Of a stretch of DNA of 64,000 nt, positions 5,223 through 63,127 are shown piece by piece. Made by a program: the position numbers and the translations under genes. Source of the stretch: Eubacteriales bacterium (GTDB lineage Bacteria; Bacillota; Clostridia; Oscillospirales; JAAYXM01); NCBI GenBank assembly GCA_045586595.1, contig JAZNAQ010000022.1:1605-65604 (forward strand), in the 5' to 3' direction. Each line of letters begins with the position of its first letter. Within the stretch, counting starts at the first letter, position 1. The notes beneath the pieces were generated by a model. That model was given only the letters and a program-made list of their open reading frames with translations. It had not been told where the DNA came from and did not search any database.

Positions 5223-8200
5223 TTATGTCAGCTTAACTCCCACAGAGCGCTCTACTTCTGAAATGCTTATTGCAAGCATCTTAGATACACCCTTCTCCTG
5301 CATTGTTACACCGTAAAGAGCATCTGCCTCTTCCATTGTTCCTCGACGGTGAGTTATTACGATGAACTGTGTTGTCTCTGCCAGACGGCGTAAATACTCC
5401 GCATACCTTGCGACGTTTACATCGTCAAGCGCAGCCTCGATTTCGTCCAGTACACAGAACGGAGTCGGGCGAATCTTCATTATTGCAAAGTACAGCGCAA
5501 TAGCAACAAGCGCGCGCTCGCCACCAGAAAGAAGCGTTATTGTCTTAAGCGTCTTCCCCGGGGGCTGGACGCGTATTTCTATTCCGCAATTTAAGATGTC
5601 GCCCTCGTCCTCTAAGACGAGTTCTGCCTTACCGCCACCAAATATCTCGGCAAATGTCTCGCCGAAGTTGCGGTTGATTACCTTGAACTGCTCTGCAAAT
5701 ATAGTCTGCATTTCTTCGGTAATCTCAAAAATCATCTTTTCAAGCTCTGCCTTTGCCTTTTCAAGGTCACCACACTGCTTTGTCATAAACTCATAACGCT
5801 CGGATACGCGCTCATATTCTTCTATCGCATTTACGTTGACATCTCCGAGTTTTCTGACTGCGCTCTTAAGCGCTGATATACGCTTTGTGGCCTCAGACAT
5901 AGACTCTATCGGAACAATGTATTTTTCTGCAGTACCCATCGTAAGTTCATACGACTCCCACAGTTTTTCTGTTATCTGCTCCTCCTCGCGAGCGGCAGAC
6001 TCCTTCTTCATTTCAAGGCGTGAGCGCTCACGCTCAAGCTTTAATATATCATCGTTCTTTTCTTTACTTTCTTTATCCTTGCAGCTGCGCTCCGCTTCAA
6101 GATTAATGCGCGCCTCTGCAATATCACAAAGCCTCTGCTCTATGAGTTTTTTCTTCTCGCGGCGTGCTTCTGCCGCCGCCTTCTTCGCCAAAATTTCAGT
6201 TGCGAGTTCGTCATTCTGCTTTTCAATATCGCGGATGGTCTGCTCCTTTGAGGCGCGGTCTCCCGCCATTGCAGATGAAAGCATTTCTATTTCTTCAAGC
6301 GCACGTCGTGCCTCAGAAGACTCAGCAAGGTTTGCCGCAAGGCTTGCCTGAGCGGTCGCCATCTCCTCAGCGAGTTCGGTCTTTTGCGCGGCAAGGGACG
6401 AATTACCTTCAATAAGAGCCTCTTCCTCCTCGCGAAGCGCACTAAGCTCTTTTTCTTTATCTGCGATACACTCGATCGTTGTTTCTTTAACGCGCAGCGA
6501 CTGGCTTTTCTTCGCCGCAAGAGCTGTAAGCTCATCGTTCAATGAGTCTATAAGCTCGTTTAAGTGGCGGTGTAGCGTCTTGTAATGCTCAATTTCCGTC
6601 TCGGCTTTAAGCAGAACGTCCTCGGCATTGCGCTTATCGTTTCTGCAGACCTCCATCTCATACATAAGCGCATTATAGTCGCGCTCAGCTTCTGCCTTTT
6701 CGGTGTTGGTCTTCTCAATCTTTTCACGAAGTGCGACAATGTCGCCCTCGAGCTTCTTTATCTCATTTGTACGGGTAAGTATTCCGGAGGTCTTGTTCGT
6801 ACTACCGCCGGTATACGTACCGCCCGAGTTTATTATCTGCCCGTCAAGCGTGACTATACGGAAGCTGTAGCCGTATTTTTTCGCAACGGCAGACGCGCTG
6901 TTGATGTTATCGCAAACGACTATTTTGCCAAGCAAATAGCGGATTGCAGGCGCAAACTTCTCGTCATAGCCTACAAGGTTTGATGCAAGCCCGACAAATC
7001 CTGCCTGGTTTGAAAGACCCTGTTTATCAAGTTCGCTTCCCTTAACTGTATCAAGCGGCATGAACGTAGCCCTGCCGCCGTCGGTACGTTTTAAGAATGC
7101 GATTGCTTCTTTTGAGTCGCGCTCATCTGAAACTATTATATTCTGAAGTGCCCCGCCGAGAATCGTCTCAATGGCAACTGTGTACTTATCCTCAACTCGT
7201 ATAAGCTGAGAAACCGTACCGTAAATGCCGCCGAGATTGCCTTTATCCTTCGCTTTCATTATATTTTTAACTGCATACGAATACCCCTGCAAGTCGCGCT
7301 CCATCTCACGGAGCATACGAAGCTTATTCTCCATCGACTCAAGGGAAAGCTCAAGCTTTGAGCTCTGCTCGCGGAGCTTTTCAAAGCGCTCACCACGGGA
7401 TTTATACTTCATCTCAAAGCCGTTTAGCATATTATCCGCGCTTGAACACTTTTCCTCGGCTTCTTCGAGGTTTTCTTTAACAAGTGCAAACTTCTGCTTT
7501 GACTCAGAAAGCTCGGCTTCACGAGTGGCAAGCTCTGCCTCTATATCTGTTTTACGGGTATCAAAACCTGCAATCTCCGCATCAGAGGCGGACATTGCTA
7601 TTTTAAGTTTTGCAATATCGTCTTCGCAAATCCTGAAGCGCAGGCGTAAATCGTCAAGCTTTGCCGCCGCGTCATCACTCTTGCCTGAGGCAAGAAGTGC
7701 GGCTTCGCGCAGGCTCTCTATCTTCTCCTCTATGGTGCGGGCATCCGACTCAAGCTCACTCACACGCTTTTCTCGCGCTTTTATCTGTTCGGCAATGCTC
7801 TGTGCACGGTTTGTTTCGTCATTAATTTCTGCGCGGATACGTTCAATATTATGAAGATTGTTGGTGGAGGTAGACTCGAGCGCAGCTATTTCGCTTGCTA
7901 CCTCGTTTATCTCACGCTCTGCCTCACGCTCTTCGTCACGCGCTGCCTGCGCCTGCACATCCTTTTCGCGCATTTTCTCTGCGAGTTCTTCAACCTCTGC
8001 ATAGAGCGAATCGAGCGCAGCTTTAGAGGCAGCAAACTGACTGCATACCACCTCATAATCATTTATGTATTTCTGAGCATTCTCTTTTGCGCGGGCGAGG
8101 TTTTCTGTCCATACACTGACCTCAAGGCCCCGAAGCTCATCATATATTTTTATGTATTCACGGGCCTTTTCCGCCTGATGCTTAAGCGGGCCGACCTGCG

Positions 8201-9773: not shown

Positions 9774-9849
9774 GGGGGCGTAGCTCAGCTGGGAGAGCGC
9801 TGCGTTCGCAACGCAGAGGTCAAGGGTTCGATCCCCTCCGTCTCCACCA
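9774..9849 (+). tRNA. tRNA-Ala (anticodon CGC), CCA encoded
   Basis: Cloverleaf folded by hand: acceptor GGGGGCG/CGTCTCC with the G3:U70 alanine identity pair, D arm GCTC-AGCTGGGA-GAGC, anticodon arm CTGCG-TTCGCAA-CGCAG, T loop TTCGATC, then ACCA. Confidence 0.9.
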
Positions 9850-9911
9850 AACAGATAACGTACCATCCGCAAGGTTGGTGCGTTTTTTGTTTGGTGCCCG
9901 TGACGGTGAGG
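9830..9911 (+). repeat. Direct repeat copy A (tRNA-Ala from G57 to CCA, plus terminator, plus 23 nt)
   Basis: 82 nt repeated at 9981-10062 with a single mismatch (C9898 vs T10049). The period is 151 bp. Confidence 0.95.
9859..9888 (+). terminator. Intrinsic terminator after tRNA-Ala
   Basis: Hairpin CGTACCATCC-GCAA-GGTTGGTGCG followed by TTTTTT. An identical copy lies at 10010-10039. Confidence 0.7.
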
Positions 9912-9980
9912 GAGCGAACAGGACGGCGGCTCGCAAGCCGTAAAAAGGCTGCCGGTGGCAGGCTTTTTAGTCCGCGGGCA
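9912..9980 (+). ncRNA. Conserved structured core element (copy 1), function unknown
   Basis: 69 nt unique spacer between the repeats, homologous to 32571-32635. P1 is GGAC(9921-9924)/GTCC(9970-9973). Inside are hairpin H1 GCGGCT-CGCA-AGCCGT and GC-rich hairpin H2 AAAAAGGCTGCC-GGT-GGCAGGCTTTTT. It then runs into the duplicated tRNA 3' end (9981-10000). Confidence 0.4.
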
Positions 9981-10062
9981 GATCCCCTCCGTCTCCACCA
10001 AACAGATAACGTACCATCCGCAAGGTTGGTGCGTTTTTTGTTTGGTGTCCGTGACGGTGAGG
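9981..10062 (+). repeat. Direct repeat copy B (orphan tRNA-Ala 3' fragment G57-CCA, plus terminator copy)
   Basis: See copy A. There is no tRNA 5' half upstream of it. Confidence 0.95.
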
Positions 10063-10145
10063 AATCTAATATAACTTCTATTGCAAAAAGAGACAATATA
10101 ATGTATACTTAATTAAAAGAAAACACGCAAAACGGAGGAAATCAA

Positions 10146-32390: not shown

Positions 32391-32419
32391 TTGACAAAGC
32401 CTTATATTTTTTGTATAAT
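32391..32419 (+). promoter_or_regulatory. Consensus sigma-A promoter of the CAU tRNA
   Basis: TTGACA (32391-32396), 17 nt spacer, TATAAT (32414-32419), 17 nt upstream of the tRNA 5' end. Confidence 0.75.
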
Positions 32420-32436
32420 ATATAAGCTTAATATTT

Positions 32437-32513
32437 GGGCCTTTAGCTCAGTTGGCTAGAGCTCCCGGCTCATAACCGGATGGTCCTGGGTTCGAGTCCC
32501 CGAAGGCCCACCA
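32437..32513 (+). tRNA. tRNA with anticodon CAU (elongator Met or lysidine-type Ile2; not distinguishable by eye), CCA encoded
   Basis: Acceptor GGGCCTT/AAGGCCC, D arm GCTC-AGTTGGCTA-GAGC, anticodon loop CTCATAA, T loop TTCGAGT, then ACCA. Confidence 0.88.
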
Positions 32514-32522
32514 AAGAAGATA
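32494..32522 (+). repeat. Direct repeat copy A (CAU-tRNA G57 to CCA, plus 9 nt)
   Basis: GAGTCCCCGAAGGCCCACCAAAGAAGATA is repeated exactly at 32636-32664. Confidence 0.95.
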
Positions 32523-32553
32523 ACACCGATTTTTATCGGTGTTATCTTTTTTT
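32517..32553 (+). terminator. Intrinsic terminator after the CAU tRNA
   Basis: AAGATAACACCGAT-TTTT-ATCGGTGTTATCTT plus T5. Confidence 0.85.
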
Positions 32554-32563
32554 GTGGCATCCT

Positions 32564-32635
32564 GAGGTGGACGAGAACAGCACGGCGACTTGTCGTAAAA
32601 AGGGTGCCGGTGGCACGCTTTTTAGTGCGCGGGTA
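32564..32635 (+). ncRNA. Conserved structured core element (copy 2), function unknown
   Basis: Homologous to 9904-9980. Shared blocks are TGA-N-GGTG, AACAG, P1 GCAC(32580-32583)/GTGC(32625-32628), H1 GCGA-CTTG-TCGT, H2 AAAAAGGGTGCC-GGT-GGCACGCTTTTT, and CGCGGG-YA. It is followed by the tRNA 3' duplicate. Confidence 0.4.
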
Positions 32636-32664
32636 GAGTCCCCGAAGGCCCACCAAAGAAGATA
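32636..32664 (+). repeat. Direct repeat copy B (orphan tRNA 3' fragment)
   Basis: Exact 29-nt copy with no tRNA 5' half preceding it. Confidence 0.95.
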
Positions 32665-32702
32665 CCGCACAGGAGATCAAAATTTCCGTGCGGTATCTTC
32701 TT
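32656..32702. terminator. Hairpin terminator after the orphan tRNA 3' fragment (also abuts the stop of the convergent EAL gene)
   Basis: AAGAAGATACCGCAC...GTGCGGTATCTTCTT, a 15-bp stem. Confidence 0.6.
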
Positions 32703-34096
32703 TAGTTTTTGTCATGCTTATATCTTTTCATAAACAGCTCACTCTCTTCAACCGGAAGCGGTTTCGAATAATACCATCCCTGAACATAATCGCAGTCTGA
32801 TTCTGATACAAGTTTGTTTTGTGCTTCGGTCTCAACACCCTCGCAAATCACCTTAATATTCAGATTGTGCGCAAGAGCGATAATGCCGGAGAAGAGGTCT
32901 CTTCCTTTTTTCGTATCCGTCTTAAGAAGAATATCGCGGTCGATTTTGACAACATCAATCGGATAATCGCAAAGATTAACAAGTGAAGTATATCCGCTTC
33001 CGAGGTCATCGAGATAGACATTAAAGCCGAGCGCCTTGCACTTTGCAACATTCTCCGTTGCCAGTTCCCTGTCTTTTTCCATCGCATCTTCGGTAATCTC
33101 AATAACAAGCTTTGACTTGTCAAATTTATAGCTGTTTGCAATCTCTGTAAATCTGTCAATAAAATTCTCTTCTGAGAGCGTAATTCGCGTGAAGTTACAG
33201 GAAATCATAATATCTTTACATTCTGTATCATTCCACTTTTCAAGCTGACGGCAGACAAGCTCAAACATATAAAAATCAAGTTTACTGATGAGGCCCACCG
33301 TTTCCATGTTTTCTATATACATACTCGGTGGAAGTAACCCCTTGTCCACACTATTCCATCTTGAAAGAGCTTCGGCGGATACTATTTTTTTCGTTTTGTT
33401 GTCAACAACAAACTGCAGATACATCTTAAACTCGTTGTTTTCAAAGCCCTTGAGTATATTCTCTGTAATTTGTTTTTCTTGCTGAATCGAACTCATAGAA
33501 TTGGAATCGCAATATACAATCTGTTTTTCGGTACCAAAAATCCTGTTGCAGTTTTTTCTCAGATTAAAAAGCAAAAGCTCACAGTTTAAATCAGATTCTG
33601 AAAGCGGATATACTGCTGCGTAGAACATAAGCTTTCGCCTTCTGTCTTCTGTCTTTCCAAAAGCATTGAGCGCACCCATAAGCTCATTCAGCCTTTTTTT
33701 GGCGTTCTCATCATCCGTCGCACGGAAAGCAAAAGCAAACCCGTTTTCGGTAATTCTTGCGGAGATTTCTTTTTCTTCTGTATGCTCCGTCAAAACAGAT
33801 GCGGCATACTTCAGCACATCCGTAAATGAATTTCCGTCGTGATACGGTCTTAAATAAGTGCTGTCCAAAATAATATACGCAACATGATACGTACTTCTCA
33901 GGATATCACCTATAGTGTACTTGAAATGATACTTAAAAAACTGCAGGTTCCCTATCCCTGTTTCAGTATCCGTCATTTTGCCTGCTTCTTTTTCTTTTTT
34001 TACTTGCCTTATTTTCACGAGCAAAACCGCTATCAAAACGAGCAAAACAGGAACAAGAACAAACCTTATCAAAATTTTATCCATCGGACTGATCAC
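32702..34096 (-). CDS. Membrane-anchored c-di-GMP phosphodiesterase (degenerate GGDEF-like region + EAL)
   Basis: 464 aa with an N-terminal TM helix and EAL motifs (SAEALSRW, DDLGSGYTSL, VKIDRD, EGVE). Confidence 0.8.
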   Translation of the reverse strand: MISPMDKILIRFVLVPVLLVLIAVLLVKIRQVKKEKEAGKMTDTETGIGNLQFFKYHFKYTIGDILRSTYHVAYIILDSTYLRPYHDGNSFTDVLKYAASVLTEHTEEKEISARITENGFAFAFRATDDENAKKRLNELMGALNAFGKTEDRRRKLMFYAAVYPLSESDLNCELLLFNLRKNCNRIFGTEKQIVYCDSNSMSSIQQEKQITENILKGFENNEFKMYLQFVVDNKTKKIVSAEALSRWNSVDKGLLPPSMYIENMETVGLISKLDFYMFELVCRQLEKWNDTECKDIMISCNFTRITLSEENFIDRFTEIANSYKFDKSKLVIEITEDAMEKDRELATENVAKCKALGFNVYLDDLGSGYTSLVNLCDYPIDVVKIDRDILLKTDTKKGRDLFSGIIALAHNLNIKVICEGVETEAQNKLVSESDCDYVQGWYYSKPLPVEESELFMKRYKHDKN

Positions 34097-34160: not shown

Positions 34161-34208
34161 AAAAACTGCAACAATAAGAAGCCCTATTACGGGCCCTTAT
34201 TATTGCAG
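34161..34208 (-). terminator. Intrinsic terminator after the GGDEF gene
   Basis: On the minus strand, a roughly 18-bp stem CTGCAATAATAAGGGCCC...GGGCTTCTTATTGTTGCAG followed by U5. Confidence 0.75.
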
Positions 34209-34327
34209 CTGGACTGGCATAGTATAAAACCTTAGCCTCTTGGCTTTGCGTCGCCGACTTTCGCCGGTTTTGCCAAATGTTCAATTTTCACCAGTTTATC
34301 ACACTAAAGCATTTTTGTCAAACACTT

Positions 34328-61385: not shown

Positions 61386-62774
61386 TTAATCCTCCTCAAA
61401 CACTATCTTATTCAGCGCGTTGATATACGCTCTGATGCTTGCTGCCACAATATCAGTAGAGATTCCGTTGCCGGAATAGAGTTTTCCATCCACGCGAAGC
61501 TTTACAACAGCCGAGCCAAGAGCCTCCTTGCCCTCAGTAACGGCATGGATCTGGAAATCGTCAAGCTCATAGTGATAGCCTATGCACTGTTCTATTGCAC
61601 GAAATGCTGAGTCTACAGCGCCGTCACCCATACTTACGCCGCAGAGAATTTCGTCACCGCACTTGAGCGTAACCTGTGACATGGCACTTGTGAGATTGCC
61701 GCAGTTTGTGGTGTAGCTCTCAAGGTGATATGTTGACGGTGCCTGCATGGCAGAGCTTGCTATAAGTGCCTCAAGCTCCTTCGCGCCGACTGTGCTCTTC
61801 TTCTCGCATACCTGCACAAGAGCACGGTATACATTTCCGTTATCCTCATCGGAAAGGTCATATCCGAGAACCTTTGCAGCCTGTGCAACATCTGAAAGCG
61901 TACTGTCGCAATCAAGAACGATTTTTTTCTTCTCACTTGCAGCATCTGCGCTCTCGTAAGCATCATGATTTATCTTTCGGAGCATCTCATCTACACTTGA
62001 ATGTATCTGGGTAGCTACAATAGAAGTGGATATGCCGAGAGCTTCGCCTCTTGCGCTTATTGCGTCAGAGAGCTCGCCTACAGACAAAACATTCTTTCCT
62101 GCCATCGCACACTTAAGCCCGTCAGCCCCTGCCTTTACCGCAGCAATAGCAGTTGCAACAGCCATATTGATACTGTCGGATACCTGAACATATACCGATG
62201 TGTTTACCTGAGCCTTTATTGCAGCGGTAAGCTCTGCAATCTCCTCAGGAAGTGAAACTCCGGCGTCGTCGCAGATAGTTACGATTCCTGCGCCGCTTGC
62301 CTCAGCCGCTTTAACTGCATTAATAATGAAGTCACGGTCTGCACGAGTTGCATCAAGTGCAACAAATTCGACATCGGGGCAGAATTTCTTTGCCTCGGCT
62401 ACAAGCTCTTCAATCTTTGTAAGCATCTTATCTGCCTTGAGATGATATATATACTCCATCTGCACCGTAGAAGTAGGGAGGGCTACCTGAAGGCGCGGCT
62501 TTGCTGCATCTTTTATACACTCCCATGCGACAGACACCTCGTCTGCCGTAAAGCCGACAGGGAGAGCGACTGCGCTGCTTTTAACGTTTGATGCAATCGT
62601 TTTATAAATAATTGTATCCTCGCGAACATTCTTTATTGGCGCAAGCTCAACAGCATCCGCACCGAGAGAATCTGCACACGCCGCTATAGCTGTTTTCTCT
62701 CTGAAGAGCAGTGAAACCTCACGGTCTTGTGAAAGCTCCTTTAACGTGATGTCAGTAACTAAAATTTTCTTCAT
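61386..62774 (-). CDS. 2-isopropylmalate synthase (LeuA) homolog lacking the catalytic and metal-binding residues but retaining the C-terminal LeuA regulatory domain
   Basis: 462 aa, collinear with recalled B. subtilis LeuA. DTTLRDGEQ is replaced by DITLKELSQ, HCHDD by QVSDS, and GIGERAGN by GKNVLSVG. The C-terminus (TEGKEALGSAVVKL...GISTDIVAASIRAYINALNKI) matches the LeuA_dimer domain. Confidence 0.7.
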   Translation of the reverse strand: MKKILVTDITLKELSQDREVSLLFREKTAIAACADSLGADAVELAPIKNVREDTIIYKTIASNVKSSAVALPVGFTADEVSVAWECIKDAAKPRLQVALPTSTVQMEYIYHLKADKMLTKIEELVAEAKKFCPDVEFVALDATRADRDFIINAVKAAEASGAGIVTICDDAGVSLPEEIAELTAAIKAQVNTSVYVQVSDSINMAVATAIAAVKAGADGLKCAMAGKNVLSVGELSDAISARGEALGISTSIVATQIHSSVDEMLRKINHDAYESADAASEKKKIVLDCDSTLSDVAQAAKVLGYDLSDEDNGNVYRALVQVCEKKSTVGAKELEALIASSAMQAPSTYHLESYTTNCGNLTSAMSQVTLKCGDEILCGVSMGDGAVDSAFRAIEQCIGYHYELDDFQIHAVTEGKEALGSAVVKLRVDGKLYSGNGISTDIVAASIRAYINALNKIVFEED

Positions 62775-62820: not shown

Positions 62821-63127
62821 AAAACGCTTTCATCTCTTTGTTATCCTTTAATAACTCAAAGAGACGAAAGCGTTAAAACTCAAGTATTTAAACCTTTCGC
62901 GGTACCACTCTTTTTCATCCTACGGCGAGGATGCACCTCAGGTGCTGACACACCTTGACTCTGTTACGGGAGCTCCCGTCCGCCCCTACTCTCTTTCAAT
63001 TTCACGGCAGCCGCTCCGTGGTGAGTTCAACGAGGCTAACCCAATGCCTTGCACCAACCGGCATCTCTCTGCGCGGGTATAAGCTTTTCGCATACTATTC
63101 CACATCATCGCGTTTGTTTTCAATTTG
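62821..63127 (-). promoter_or_regulatory. T-box riboswitch, specifier CUC (Leu)
   Basis: Promoter TTGACA (63162-63157), 17 nt spacer, TATAAT (63139-63134). Stem I has GCGAUGAUGUGG, the AGUA S-turn, AGAGAG and a GGUGCAA distal loop. Textbook specifier loop GAA-CUC-A-CCAC (plus 63023-63025). T-box AGAGUGGUACCGCGAAAGG (62896-62912). Terminator AACGCUUUC...GAAAGCGUU plus U4 (62821-62874). Confidence 0.9.

Follow-up and report, generated by a model that had tools for sequence, protein, structure and literature searches.

Prophages and islands land mainly in tRNA and transfer-messenger RNA (tmRNA) genes, here collectively t(m)RNA genes, whose 3' flanks are usually regarded as scars. The principle that the target gene is regenerated by the incoming element while a fragment of its 3' end is displaced (Islander), as well as a class of attP sites in the T-stem, have been described (PMC4383910), as have cis-mobilizable elements (CIMEs) and tandem accretion (PMC5704250). 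Here, we analyze a module of about 140 bp that lies downstream of a tRNA gene with anticodon CAU in a 64,000-nt stretch of DNA from a Eubacteriales bacterium (assembly GCA_045586595.1, contig JAZNAQ010000022.1, positions 1,605 to 65,604; hereafter the window). The repeated unit runs from the 3' end of the tRNA (X) through a terminator hairpin (T1) and an antisense copy of the tRNA end (X') to a core, which is followed by a sense copy of X, such that inverted tRNA-derived arms flank the core. The module is real, conserved and apparently undescribed, literature searches having found no description of it or of its relatives.

The closest described systems are tRNA-gene (tDNA) islands and CIMEs. 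As in the module, the t(m)RNA 3' end is repeated directly, starting in the T-arm region, and the element brings a new 3' end and terminator (PMC4383910, PMC5704250); tmRNA and single-copy tRNA genes as targets, tandem arrays, and present and absent alleles are also common to both, and the target set of tycheposons provides a further comparison for the t(m)RNA targets. At the module loci, including those at tmRNA genes, an intact t(m)RNA gene and a 3'-end fragment in the same orientation flank the module, as expected for a tDNA island or CIME, but there is no integrase in or near the chromosomal copies, and no integrase-bearing parent sharing these ends was found. Unlike tDNA islands and CIMEs, the module measures only about 140 bp, has no gene, integrase or detectable parent, and has an interior consisting of a covarying core that is conserved like a functional RNA. 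It also contains an antisense copy of the attachment sequence, for which the attachment (att) sites of tyrosine integrases have no need.

Integron attC sites and attP(+) of CTX phage are imperfect hairpins with conserved bulges, in which structure is kept while sequence is free, and small units form arrays beside a fixed site; the module resembles them in all of these respects. However, attC is organized as R''/L''-L'/R', reads 5'-AAC...GTT-3', and is the substrate of IntI, whereas the base of the module hairpin reads 5'-GTTC...GAAC-3', with the GTT/AAC polarity reversed. Furthermore, the arms of the module hairpin are copies of the adjoining tRNA, and neither an IntI-like or phage gene nor a tyrosine recombinase is found nearby. 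The reversed triplet polarity and the lack of a nearby tyrosine recombinase do not fit an integron attC-like folded site.

Functional RNAs that are cut from tRNA precursors, such as the 3' external transcribed spacer sponge 3'ETS-leuZ in Escherichia coli, are short, unstructured and locus-specific trailers. They are made from the tRNA promoter, as we propose for the module, and reside in a trailer or spacer, and one relative of the module fills a tRNA-tRNA spacer. In contrast to such trailers, the module is a repeated, structured family at many tRNAs and has both sense and antisense tRNA arms. Repetitive extragenic palindromic doublets forming hairpins (REPINs) and miniature inverted-repeat transposable elements (MITEs) are, like the module, small, noncoding, hairpin-forming and multi-copy, with inverted arms around a center. 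The module, however, is not dispersed but confined to t(m)RNA 3' ends, its arms vary with the locus and equal the local gene, it lacks a short target duplication, and no REP-associated tyrosine transposase (RAYT) or other transposase was seen. The dispersed copies, constant terminal inverted repeats and short target-site duplication of a MITE or REPIN do not agree with the location of all copies at t(m)RNA 3' ends, the tRNA-dependent arms, and repeats of 14-92 nt.

Architecture of the module in the window

In the initial annotation, the tRNA(CAU) locus was described as a tRNA gene and its terminator, a region shared with the tRNA-Ala(CGC) locus, an exact 29-nt copy of the tRNA end from G57, and a different terminator. 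Our sequence comparison agrees with this layout (Table 1): residues 32494-32522 are identical to 32636-32664 and comprise G57 to CCA plus AAAGAAGATA. Two components had been overlooked, namely the antisense arm X' before the core (32554-32578), the final GAAC of which complements G53-T-T-C56 of the tRNA, and the first terminator, T1, as part of the repeated unit. The lower stems of T1 and the second terminator match, and their upper stems are unrelated. The tRNA end, T1 and X' fold as one hairpin spanning 32489-32585 (-51.2 kcal/mol, z = -8.35). Promoter-like sites were looked for inside the module at this locus, and none was found.

At the tRNA-Ala(CGC) locus, the direct repeat extends over 89 nt with 96% identity (9830-9918 and 9981-10069). 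The 20-nt ends of tRNA(CAU) and tRNA-Ala each occur exactly twice in the window, and a 40-nt pattern of the core common to both loci matches twice with no mismatch; in each case, none is expected from shuffled sequences.

Table 1. Coordinates in the window of the module downstream of tRNA(CAU) and of its sister downstream of tRNA-Ala(CGC).
Feature	Position	Strand	Remarks
Promoter of the tRNA(CAU) gene	32391-32419	+	Sigma-70 consensus TTGACA-17-TATAAT; sole promoter-like site able to drive the module
tRNA, anticodon CAU	32437-32513	+	ARAGORN, Rfam; 3' part from G57 (32494-32513) is the left X copy
T1 terminator hairpin	32508-32557	+	Lower stem: CCA end and trailer pair with T-run and GTGG; arms 23 nt, 91% complementary
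X' antisense arm	32554-32578	+	GTGGCATCCTGAGGTGGACGAGAAC; imperfect reverse complement of tRNA 53-~75, with bulge and tandem G.A mismatches
Core	32579-32635	+	P2, hp1, hp2 and invariant tail GCGGGTA (32629-32635)
Core P2	32580-32583 with 32625-32628	+	GCAC with GTGC; consensus fold
Core hp1	32585-32596	+	Consensus fold
Core hp2	32597-32623	+	A5-GGGTGCC-GGT-GGCACGC-T5; consensus fold
X sense arm	32636-32664	+	Exact direct copy, tRNA G57 to CCA plus 9 nt of trailer
Second terminator	32652-32706	+	Common to the module and the convergent EAL-domain gene
tRNA-Ala(CGC)	9774-9849	+	ARAGORN, Rfam
Ala-locus T1	9845-9896	+	
Ala-locus X'	9893-9919	+	
Ala-locus core	9920-9980	+	
Ala-locus X	9981-10000	+	
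Ala-locus second T1	9996-10047	+	
Ala-locus second X'	10044-10062	+	Truncated

One core is joined to the cognate ends of many t(m)RNA genes

A scan of 185,579 species genomes with one 20-base core pattern returned 27 real loci, all of them in gut metagenome-assembled genomes (MAGs) of the Oscillospiraceae/Eubacteriales and several per genome; L012 and L014 (loci are given L numbers throughout) were chance matches, as were all three matches in a scan of Joint Genome Institute (JGI) metagenomes. With extra loci fetched through a neighboring protein, the cores of this kind, which we call type 1, total 35, from about 14 MAGs. Each is preceded, at a distance of about 50 nt and in the same orientation, by tRNA-Ser(TGA), tRNA(CAU), tRNA-Val(CAC), tRNA-Ala(GGC or CGC), tmRNA, or one of two unidentified tRNAs, and at some loci the upstream t(m)RNA gene is missing or replaced. 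The junction is the same in all 35 cores, ...AGTNCGCGGG(T/C/G)A (CGCGGG(T/C/G)A), after which the cognate 3' end starts from position 57/58, offset by one base in the tRNA-Val copies (TAGA followed by AGTCCC).

The observation, made initially from the two window loci, that one core is joined to differing but always cognate 3' ends at the same T-loop position thus extends to all type-1 cores. Further copies do exist, at six or more t(m)RNA types, and relatives adjoin tRNAs for Pro, Arg, His, Trp and others. The earlier argument against a segmental duplication between the two window loci, from the difference between their tRNA parts, also stands. T1 is homologous among the units at Ser, Val, Ala and tmRNA loci (consensus ACGTACCAGCCGNAGGTTGGTGCGTTTTT) and is therefore part of the unit rather than the native terminator of the tRNA. 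Across genomes the cores group by tRNA type, which argues for mostly vertical inheritance; identical cores at different tRNAs within one genome were seen in two cases, JAZQDV having them at its Ser and Ala loci.

No Rfam family covers the module in gathering mode, and neither ARAGORN nor the Rfam tRNA model makes a call on it; in permissive mode, the best Rfam match on the module is permuted tmRNA, with 18 bits against a threshold of 47. The type-1 core has no matches in viral contigs, phages or plasmids.

Covariation supports a consensus fold of the core

The RNAalifold consensus is a three-way junction formed by P2 (GGAC/GTCC or GCAC/GTGC), hp1 and hp2, followed by a GGG/CCC hairpin. Cores are ~57-63 nt in length, and one of their hairpins is tipped by CC-GGT-GG. 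Across 22 distinct units, 99.4% of the cells are paired, compared with 37-55% when the partners are slid, seven pairs have changes on both sides, and the covariation score is attained in 0 of 500 shuffles. The hairpin hp1 occurs in 16 variants with compensated stems, while hp2 retains a non-Watson-Crick position (G.G, or A.C in L033) and a conserved loop. The consensus fold of the core is accordingly backed by compensatory base changes, as expected of a structured noncoding RNA. The closing pair of hp1 alternates between G-C and G-U in five sequences, and the T1 stems carry G.T pairs, which would become A.C on the opposite strand; together, these pairs indicate the tRNA strand. Between L099 and L062, a G-to-A change in X converts a U.G pair with the 5' arm to U-A, which points to the same strand.

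Core identity between orthologous loci is 0.90-0.99, like that of the tRNA, compared with 0.33-0.85 for the upstream flank, 0.63-0.90 for T1, and 0.38-0.93 for the downstream flank. A small open reading frame (ORF) through the core is ruled out, since hp1 indels are not multiples of three and the length of hp1 varies by 4 nt between types. The module presumably has no resemblance to the cores of self-cleaving ribozymes (hammerhead, twister, pistol, hatchet). We also note that hp2 holds GCCGGTGG at 32606-32613 and 9951-9958, which we take to be one base off the E. coli Chi site, GCTGGTGG.

The antisense arm follows the host tRNA

In 14 of the 22 units, the cognate X'-X duplex beats every non-cognate combination, or all but one or two. 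Individual differences between tRNAs are mirrored in X': a T at tRNA position 64 is answered by A in L023, and the Ser acceptor variants CTTCTCC and TCCCTCC are answered by AGAAGG and GGGAGG, respectively. When the reverse complement of X' is aligned to the tRNA, Ala, Val and L024-type units share an extra base opposite 63/64 and a 2-6-nt insertion opposite 71/72, and this bulge architecture is kept between Ala and Val units despite their differing arm sequences; tandem G.A opposite G57-A58 is present in half of the unit types. In L016, L019 and L027, all of them at Ala(GGC), only GATCCCC of the downstream X has escaped decay, yet X' still matches the real tRNA, in L027 with 26 Watson-Crick positions and no mismatch.

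The initial annotation had raised, as one possibility, an RNA in need of a matching acceptor/T-arm mimic. A matching partner, X', indeed exists and covaries with the tRNA. Being the reverse complement of positions 53-72, with T-loop bases included, X' nevertheless gives a long bulged duplex on pairing and not a mimic of the T arm. A minihelix with a T-loop insertion, which would require X' to repeat the acceptor and T-stem 5' strands in the sense direction, is ruled out, as the reverse complement holds in 10/10 (Ala, Val, Pro) where the two readings differ; opposite U68 and U70, X' has A and not G.

Alleles, arrays and neighboring elements

Strains with an identical neighboring protein differ in the presence of the module: L036, L038, L040 and L041 have only the tRNA and a terminator, while L037 has one 137-nt unit with a 23-nt repeat at its bounds. 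The terminator after the last X also differs between L037 and the empty alleles, so a single clean insertion does not account for the difference between them. L034, L035 and L047 are likewise empty, L048 retains a T1-type terminator only, and L050 retains X-T1 and part of X'. Tandem arrays occur at L004, L005, L010, L013, L015, L027 and L029, many of them at contig ends, and in L013 adjacent units have unlike terminators. The ends of arrays are scattered, lying within X' at the Ala locus of the window, after GAACAG in L013, and after GAACAGCAC in L005. An insertion into the T-loop with a long target duplication, as considered initially and as a staggered cut would make it, is not borne out by these data: repeat length ranges from about 14 to 92 nt, which rules out a target-site duplication of fixed length, and some repeats extend into the terminator borne by the element and into X'.

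No integrase or transposase was found beside the chromosomal copies, where 116 neighboring ORFs are housekeeping genes with a single unrelated resolvase, and no larger, cargo-bearing element with the core was found in the 185,579 species genomes, viral contigs, phages and plasmids. In L027 (~5415-5470 and 702-1325), a unit follows only a fragment of tRNA-Ala(GGC) that begins in the anticodon loop and is the displaced fragment of another island; this island encodes a small serine recombinase, which is ruled out as the enzyme of the module since it belongs to the other island. In L005 (1-470), a locus without a tRNA, type-1 cores alternate with ~180-nt spacers holding ACAGTCCGGTGGACTG, and the arms are cut down to GGGACTC/GAGTCCC.

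A different kind of module, here termed the iteron module, was seen at L003 (6093-6300), L004 (minus strand, 270-480), L018 (2078-2330) and L046 (2299-2540). Over 200-240 nt, 8-mers (GTGATAT(T) or GATGAAAT) recur in either direction, each with a tiny GC hairpin after it, and the module begins directly after the T-run of an A5G-hairpin-CT5 terminator (...TTTTT, then CA(G/A)(T/C)TA(A/T)AT). In L046 it takes the place of everything in the unit beyond hp2 of the core, and in L018 it precedes 3.3 kb with an XRE-type helix-turn-helix gene and a pair of ORFs (218 and 509 aa) without a Pfam match. This 3.6-kb island of L018 was considered as a cargo-bearing module and dropped, as the iteron module follows any A5G-hairpin-CT5 terminator at the four loci; it looks like a separate element that targets terminators.

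Related modules share a GGT-tipped hairpin

Relatives built on AACAGTCC-GGT-GGACTGTT adjoin many other tRNAs, in gut Clostridia as well as on proviral contigs and once inside a tRNA operon, and have no match in Rfam. A related unit after tRNA-Pro(TGG) in L020 has an X' (GGGCTCGAAC) that is the perfect complement of positions 53-62, a hairpin AAAACAGTCC-GGT-GGACTGTTTT, and a ~70-nt repeat from position 59. Scanning viral contigs for AACAGTCCGGTGGACTGTT, an invariant 19-nt hairpin, yielded 46 loci in 42 distinct contexts. About half of them follow the same tRNA logic, with a tRNA 3' end, an X'-like ...T(C/T)GAA, the hairpin, and then, 25-81 nt on, a 14-92-nt copy of the 3' end; these adjoin Arg(TCT), His, Pro(CGG), Trp and other tRNAs, and some are in tandem. 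The two types are joined in L072, where GAACAGCACGG and hp1 are followed by the AACAGTCCGGTGGACTGTT hairpin and then by GTTTAGTGCC. In L099, L062 and L103, a related unit without a T-run fills the spacer between tRNA-Arg(TCT) and tRNA-His; its 5' end is paired with X (fold z = -3.66), and tRNA-His is followed by a type-1-like unit with an AGT loop.

Proviral contigs with relatives contain 11 tyrosine integrases and 4 large serine recombinases among 81 neighboring ORFs. In L071, where this was checked, a tRNA fragment with its start near the variable loop, and not at position 57, directly adjoins the integrase, and the module lies beyond the fragment, like host DNA. We therefore assign this integrase to a prophage that uses the same tRNA and not to the module, and the integrases in proviral contigs look like those of prophages sharing the tRNA target.

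The remaining AACAGTCCGGTGGACTGTT loci are in other contexts. At L060 (9341), the hairpin tips a longer imperfect hairpin in an intergenic region of an element resembling a phage or an integrative and conjugative element (ParB-methylase, amidoligase, DUF4314, Fic), with no nearby tRNA, and the same context is found in L064, L065, L067, L069, L076, L092 and L094. In the G+C-rich contigs L083, L088, L089, L093 and L104, it is flanked by repeats such as CCCCTTGGCTCTCCCTCTGGG and not by tRNA ends. The hairpin may thus associate with the 3' ends of other genes or with repeats.

Genomic surroundings of the window loci

The window contains core housekeeping genes and no integrase, and its only Rfam matches are tRNAs, one T-box and one c-di-GMP-I riboswitch. 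An EAL/GGDEF-domain gene (32705-34096, minus strand) converges on the second terminator of the module and is directly preceded by the c-di-GMP-I riboswitch (34201-34284, minus strand). The T-box leader (62857-63117, minus strand; 107 bits) lies upstream of an ORF at 61389-62774. tRNA(CAU) itself has a T50.C64 mismatch in the T-stem and a C27.A43 mismatch in the anticodon stem, both of which are kept in related genomes, and presumably resembles tRNA-Ile2 (lysidine type) more than tRNA-Met. At the Ala locus, a weak promoter-like site (TTGTCT-17-TATATT; 10068-10096, minus strand) is directed into the module. Orthologs of this locus were sought through the neighboring sstT gene, where synteny was not kept.

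Discussion

Tentatively, we favor the reading that the module is a structured RNA made from the read-through or operon transcript of the tRNA, because of its gene-less 140-bp interior, the lack of a recombinase or parent, mostly vertical descent, tRNA-like conservation, covariation, and a selected antisense arm. The position of one relative in a tRNA-operon spacer and the G-U pairs specific to the tRNA strand suggest indirectly that the module is transcribed. Transcripts starting at the very strong tRNA promoter would read through T1, or the module would simply be part of the precursor of a tRNA operon, and the folded form would then be RNA rather than single-stranded DNA. Such an RNA would work on the tRNA strand, with X' pairing with the sequence of the tRNA 3' end and the resulting long bulged stem displaying the conserved core. 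The partner of X' would usually be the downstream X or, in a read-through precursor, alternatively the 3' third of the tRNA itself. X would be kept identical to the tRNA, probably by gene conversion from the tRNA gene ~140 bp away, and X' would be kept matched by selection for pairing. In the DNA, the direct X repeats would let recombination gain, lose and multiply units, which is why the anatomy of the module is that of a cargo-less tRNA-gene integration scar.

Several observations weigh against a structured RNA. The module has no promoter of its own and lies behind a good terminator; fold z-scores of the two window units are only -1.3 and -2.0; and an RNA that needs only a stem would not require X to equal the tRNA. 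Covariation and G.T pairs would also be compatible with folded single-stranded DNA. Core conservation in the loci from the genome scan is partly forced, since the search pattern fixed 20 core positions, although L033 and L037, which were fetched through the neighboring protein without a DNA pattern, have the same core conservation. In type-1 units, hp2 is terminator-like on both strands, yet the sequence that follows is invariant; the homologous hairpin lacks a U-run in many relatives and is probably not a terminator as such. Finally, exact copies, tandem arrays, present and absent alleles, and tmRNA and single-copy tRNA targets together make up the classic signature of site-specific integration.

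This signature would be accounted for by a miniature non-autonomous integrative element, the unit X-T1-X'-core of ~137-155 bp, which a trans-acting recombinase would insert and excise site-specifically at the 3' end of the tRNA; such an element is the main rival reading, although we consider it rather unlikely. The tRNA would then represent the target after regeneration, and the downstream X would be what was displaced, while X' and the hairpins would fold a single strand into a double-stranded attachment site, as in integron attC and CTX-phage attP(+). Direct repeats that run from the T loop to CCA and beyond, the use of tmRNA as a target, and a homologous terminator supplied to each regenerated tRNA are all as predicted for an element of this kind, the general principle and the T-stem attP class having precedents in PMC4383910 and CIMEs and accretion in PMC5704250. 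Moreover, the sequence left of the junction (GTCCGCGGGTAGA) resembles the variable loop and T arm of the tRNA (GTCCTGGGTTCGA), as attP cores do, and mobility would explain the filled and empty alleles of near-identical strains (L037 as opposed to L036, L038, L040 and L041), the mixing of unlike units in the L013 array, and the identical cores at the Ser and Ala loci of JAZQDV. On the other hand, neither the chromosomal copies nor the window contain an integrase, no cargo-bearing parent was found, the cores descend mostly vertically with their tRNA type, and more than one insertion separates filled from empty alleles. The proviral integrase of L071 adjoins a tRNA fragment that starts close to the variable loop and not at position 57, and a double-stranded circle of 140 bp would be a poor recombination substrate.

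Three further explanations appear much less probable. From tRNA position 53 to X', T1 included, the sequence forms a single long quasi-palindrome, which, together with the scattered array ends and the decayed or partial units (L050, L022, L018), could be accounted for by a functionless by-product of tandem duplication of the tRNA 3' end and growth of the terminator hairpin by template switching. This we already disfavor as very unlikely, because unrelated tRNAs in many species have this core in common, its conservation is like that of the tRNA, four helices show compensatory covariation, the X' bulges are common to different tRNA types, and the 19-nt hairpin is invariant in 42 distinct contexts. 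Equally improbable is a tRNA-like RNA in which X' is the 5' strand of the acceptor, GGG-UAGAnU-CCC the T arm, and X the 3' strand with CCA, and which, after RNase P cleavage and 3' trimming, would be a decoy or substrate for enzymes or toxins that recognize the acceptor/T minihelix of the tRNA in question. The T-arm-like GGG/CCC hairpin of the consensus fold, adjacent to an acceptor 3' strand with CCA, the tRNA-type terminator after X, and the module in a tRNA operon (L099) are compatible with it. X', however, is the reverse complement of 53-72 with its T-loop bases and not a copy of the 5' strand; the pairing leaves C72 unpaired or extends over ACC; the Ala and tmRNA units have A-U in place of the alanine identity pair G3.U70; U55/C56 are absent from the pseudo T loop, which is too short by one base; and neither ARAGORN nor the Rfam tRNA model recognizes a tRNA. 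A programmable guide, in which a constant core is the scaffold and X' and X steer a recombinase or nuclease acting in trans to the cognate tRNA gene, in the manner of bridge RNAs or omega-RNAs, would agree with arms that change with the target on a constant scaffold of kept bulge architecture, with an X' that goes on matching the real tRNA gene at loci with a decayed downstream X, and with the many different tRNAs colonized. We nevertheless regard it as extremely unlikely, as no locus has an associated protein gene and there is no similarity to guide-RNA families in Rfam; to our knowledge, arms of ~20 nt in both senses over the same segment fit no known guide geometry. More broadly, and very speculatively, the module might be a programmable device specific for tRNA genes, with a CC-GGT-GG-tipped scaffold and arms rewritten for each t(m)RNA end, whose RNA or single-stranded DNA would guide a trans-acting enzyme to that gene, where it would serve integration, homing or attachment-site protection. 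Such a device would constitute a new guided system and would explain how one core has colonized more than 10 tRNAs.

For annotation, the units matter because tRNA loci that carry them give rise to orphan tRNA fragments and to breaks in MAG assemblies. At the loci described here, the flank of the t(m)RNA gene is a conserved, structured and repeated module, both arms of which are matched to the host tRNA. If the module is an RNA, as we favor, it would represent a new and fairly widespread class derived from tRNA transcripts; if it is mobile, it would be the smallest tRNA-targeting element yet seen, with an attachment logic that requires an antisense copy. The module provides a searchable signature and poses the question of how one core acquires the end of each new tRNA.

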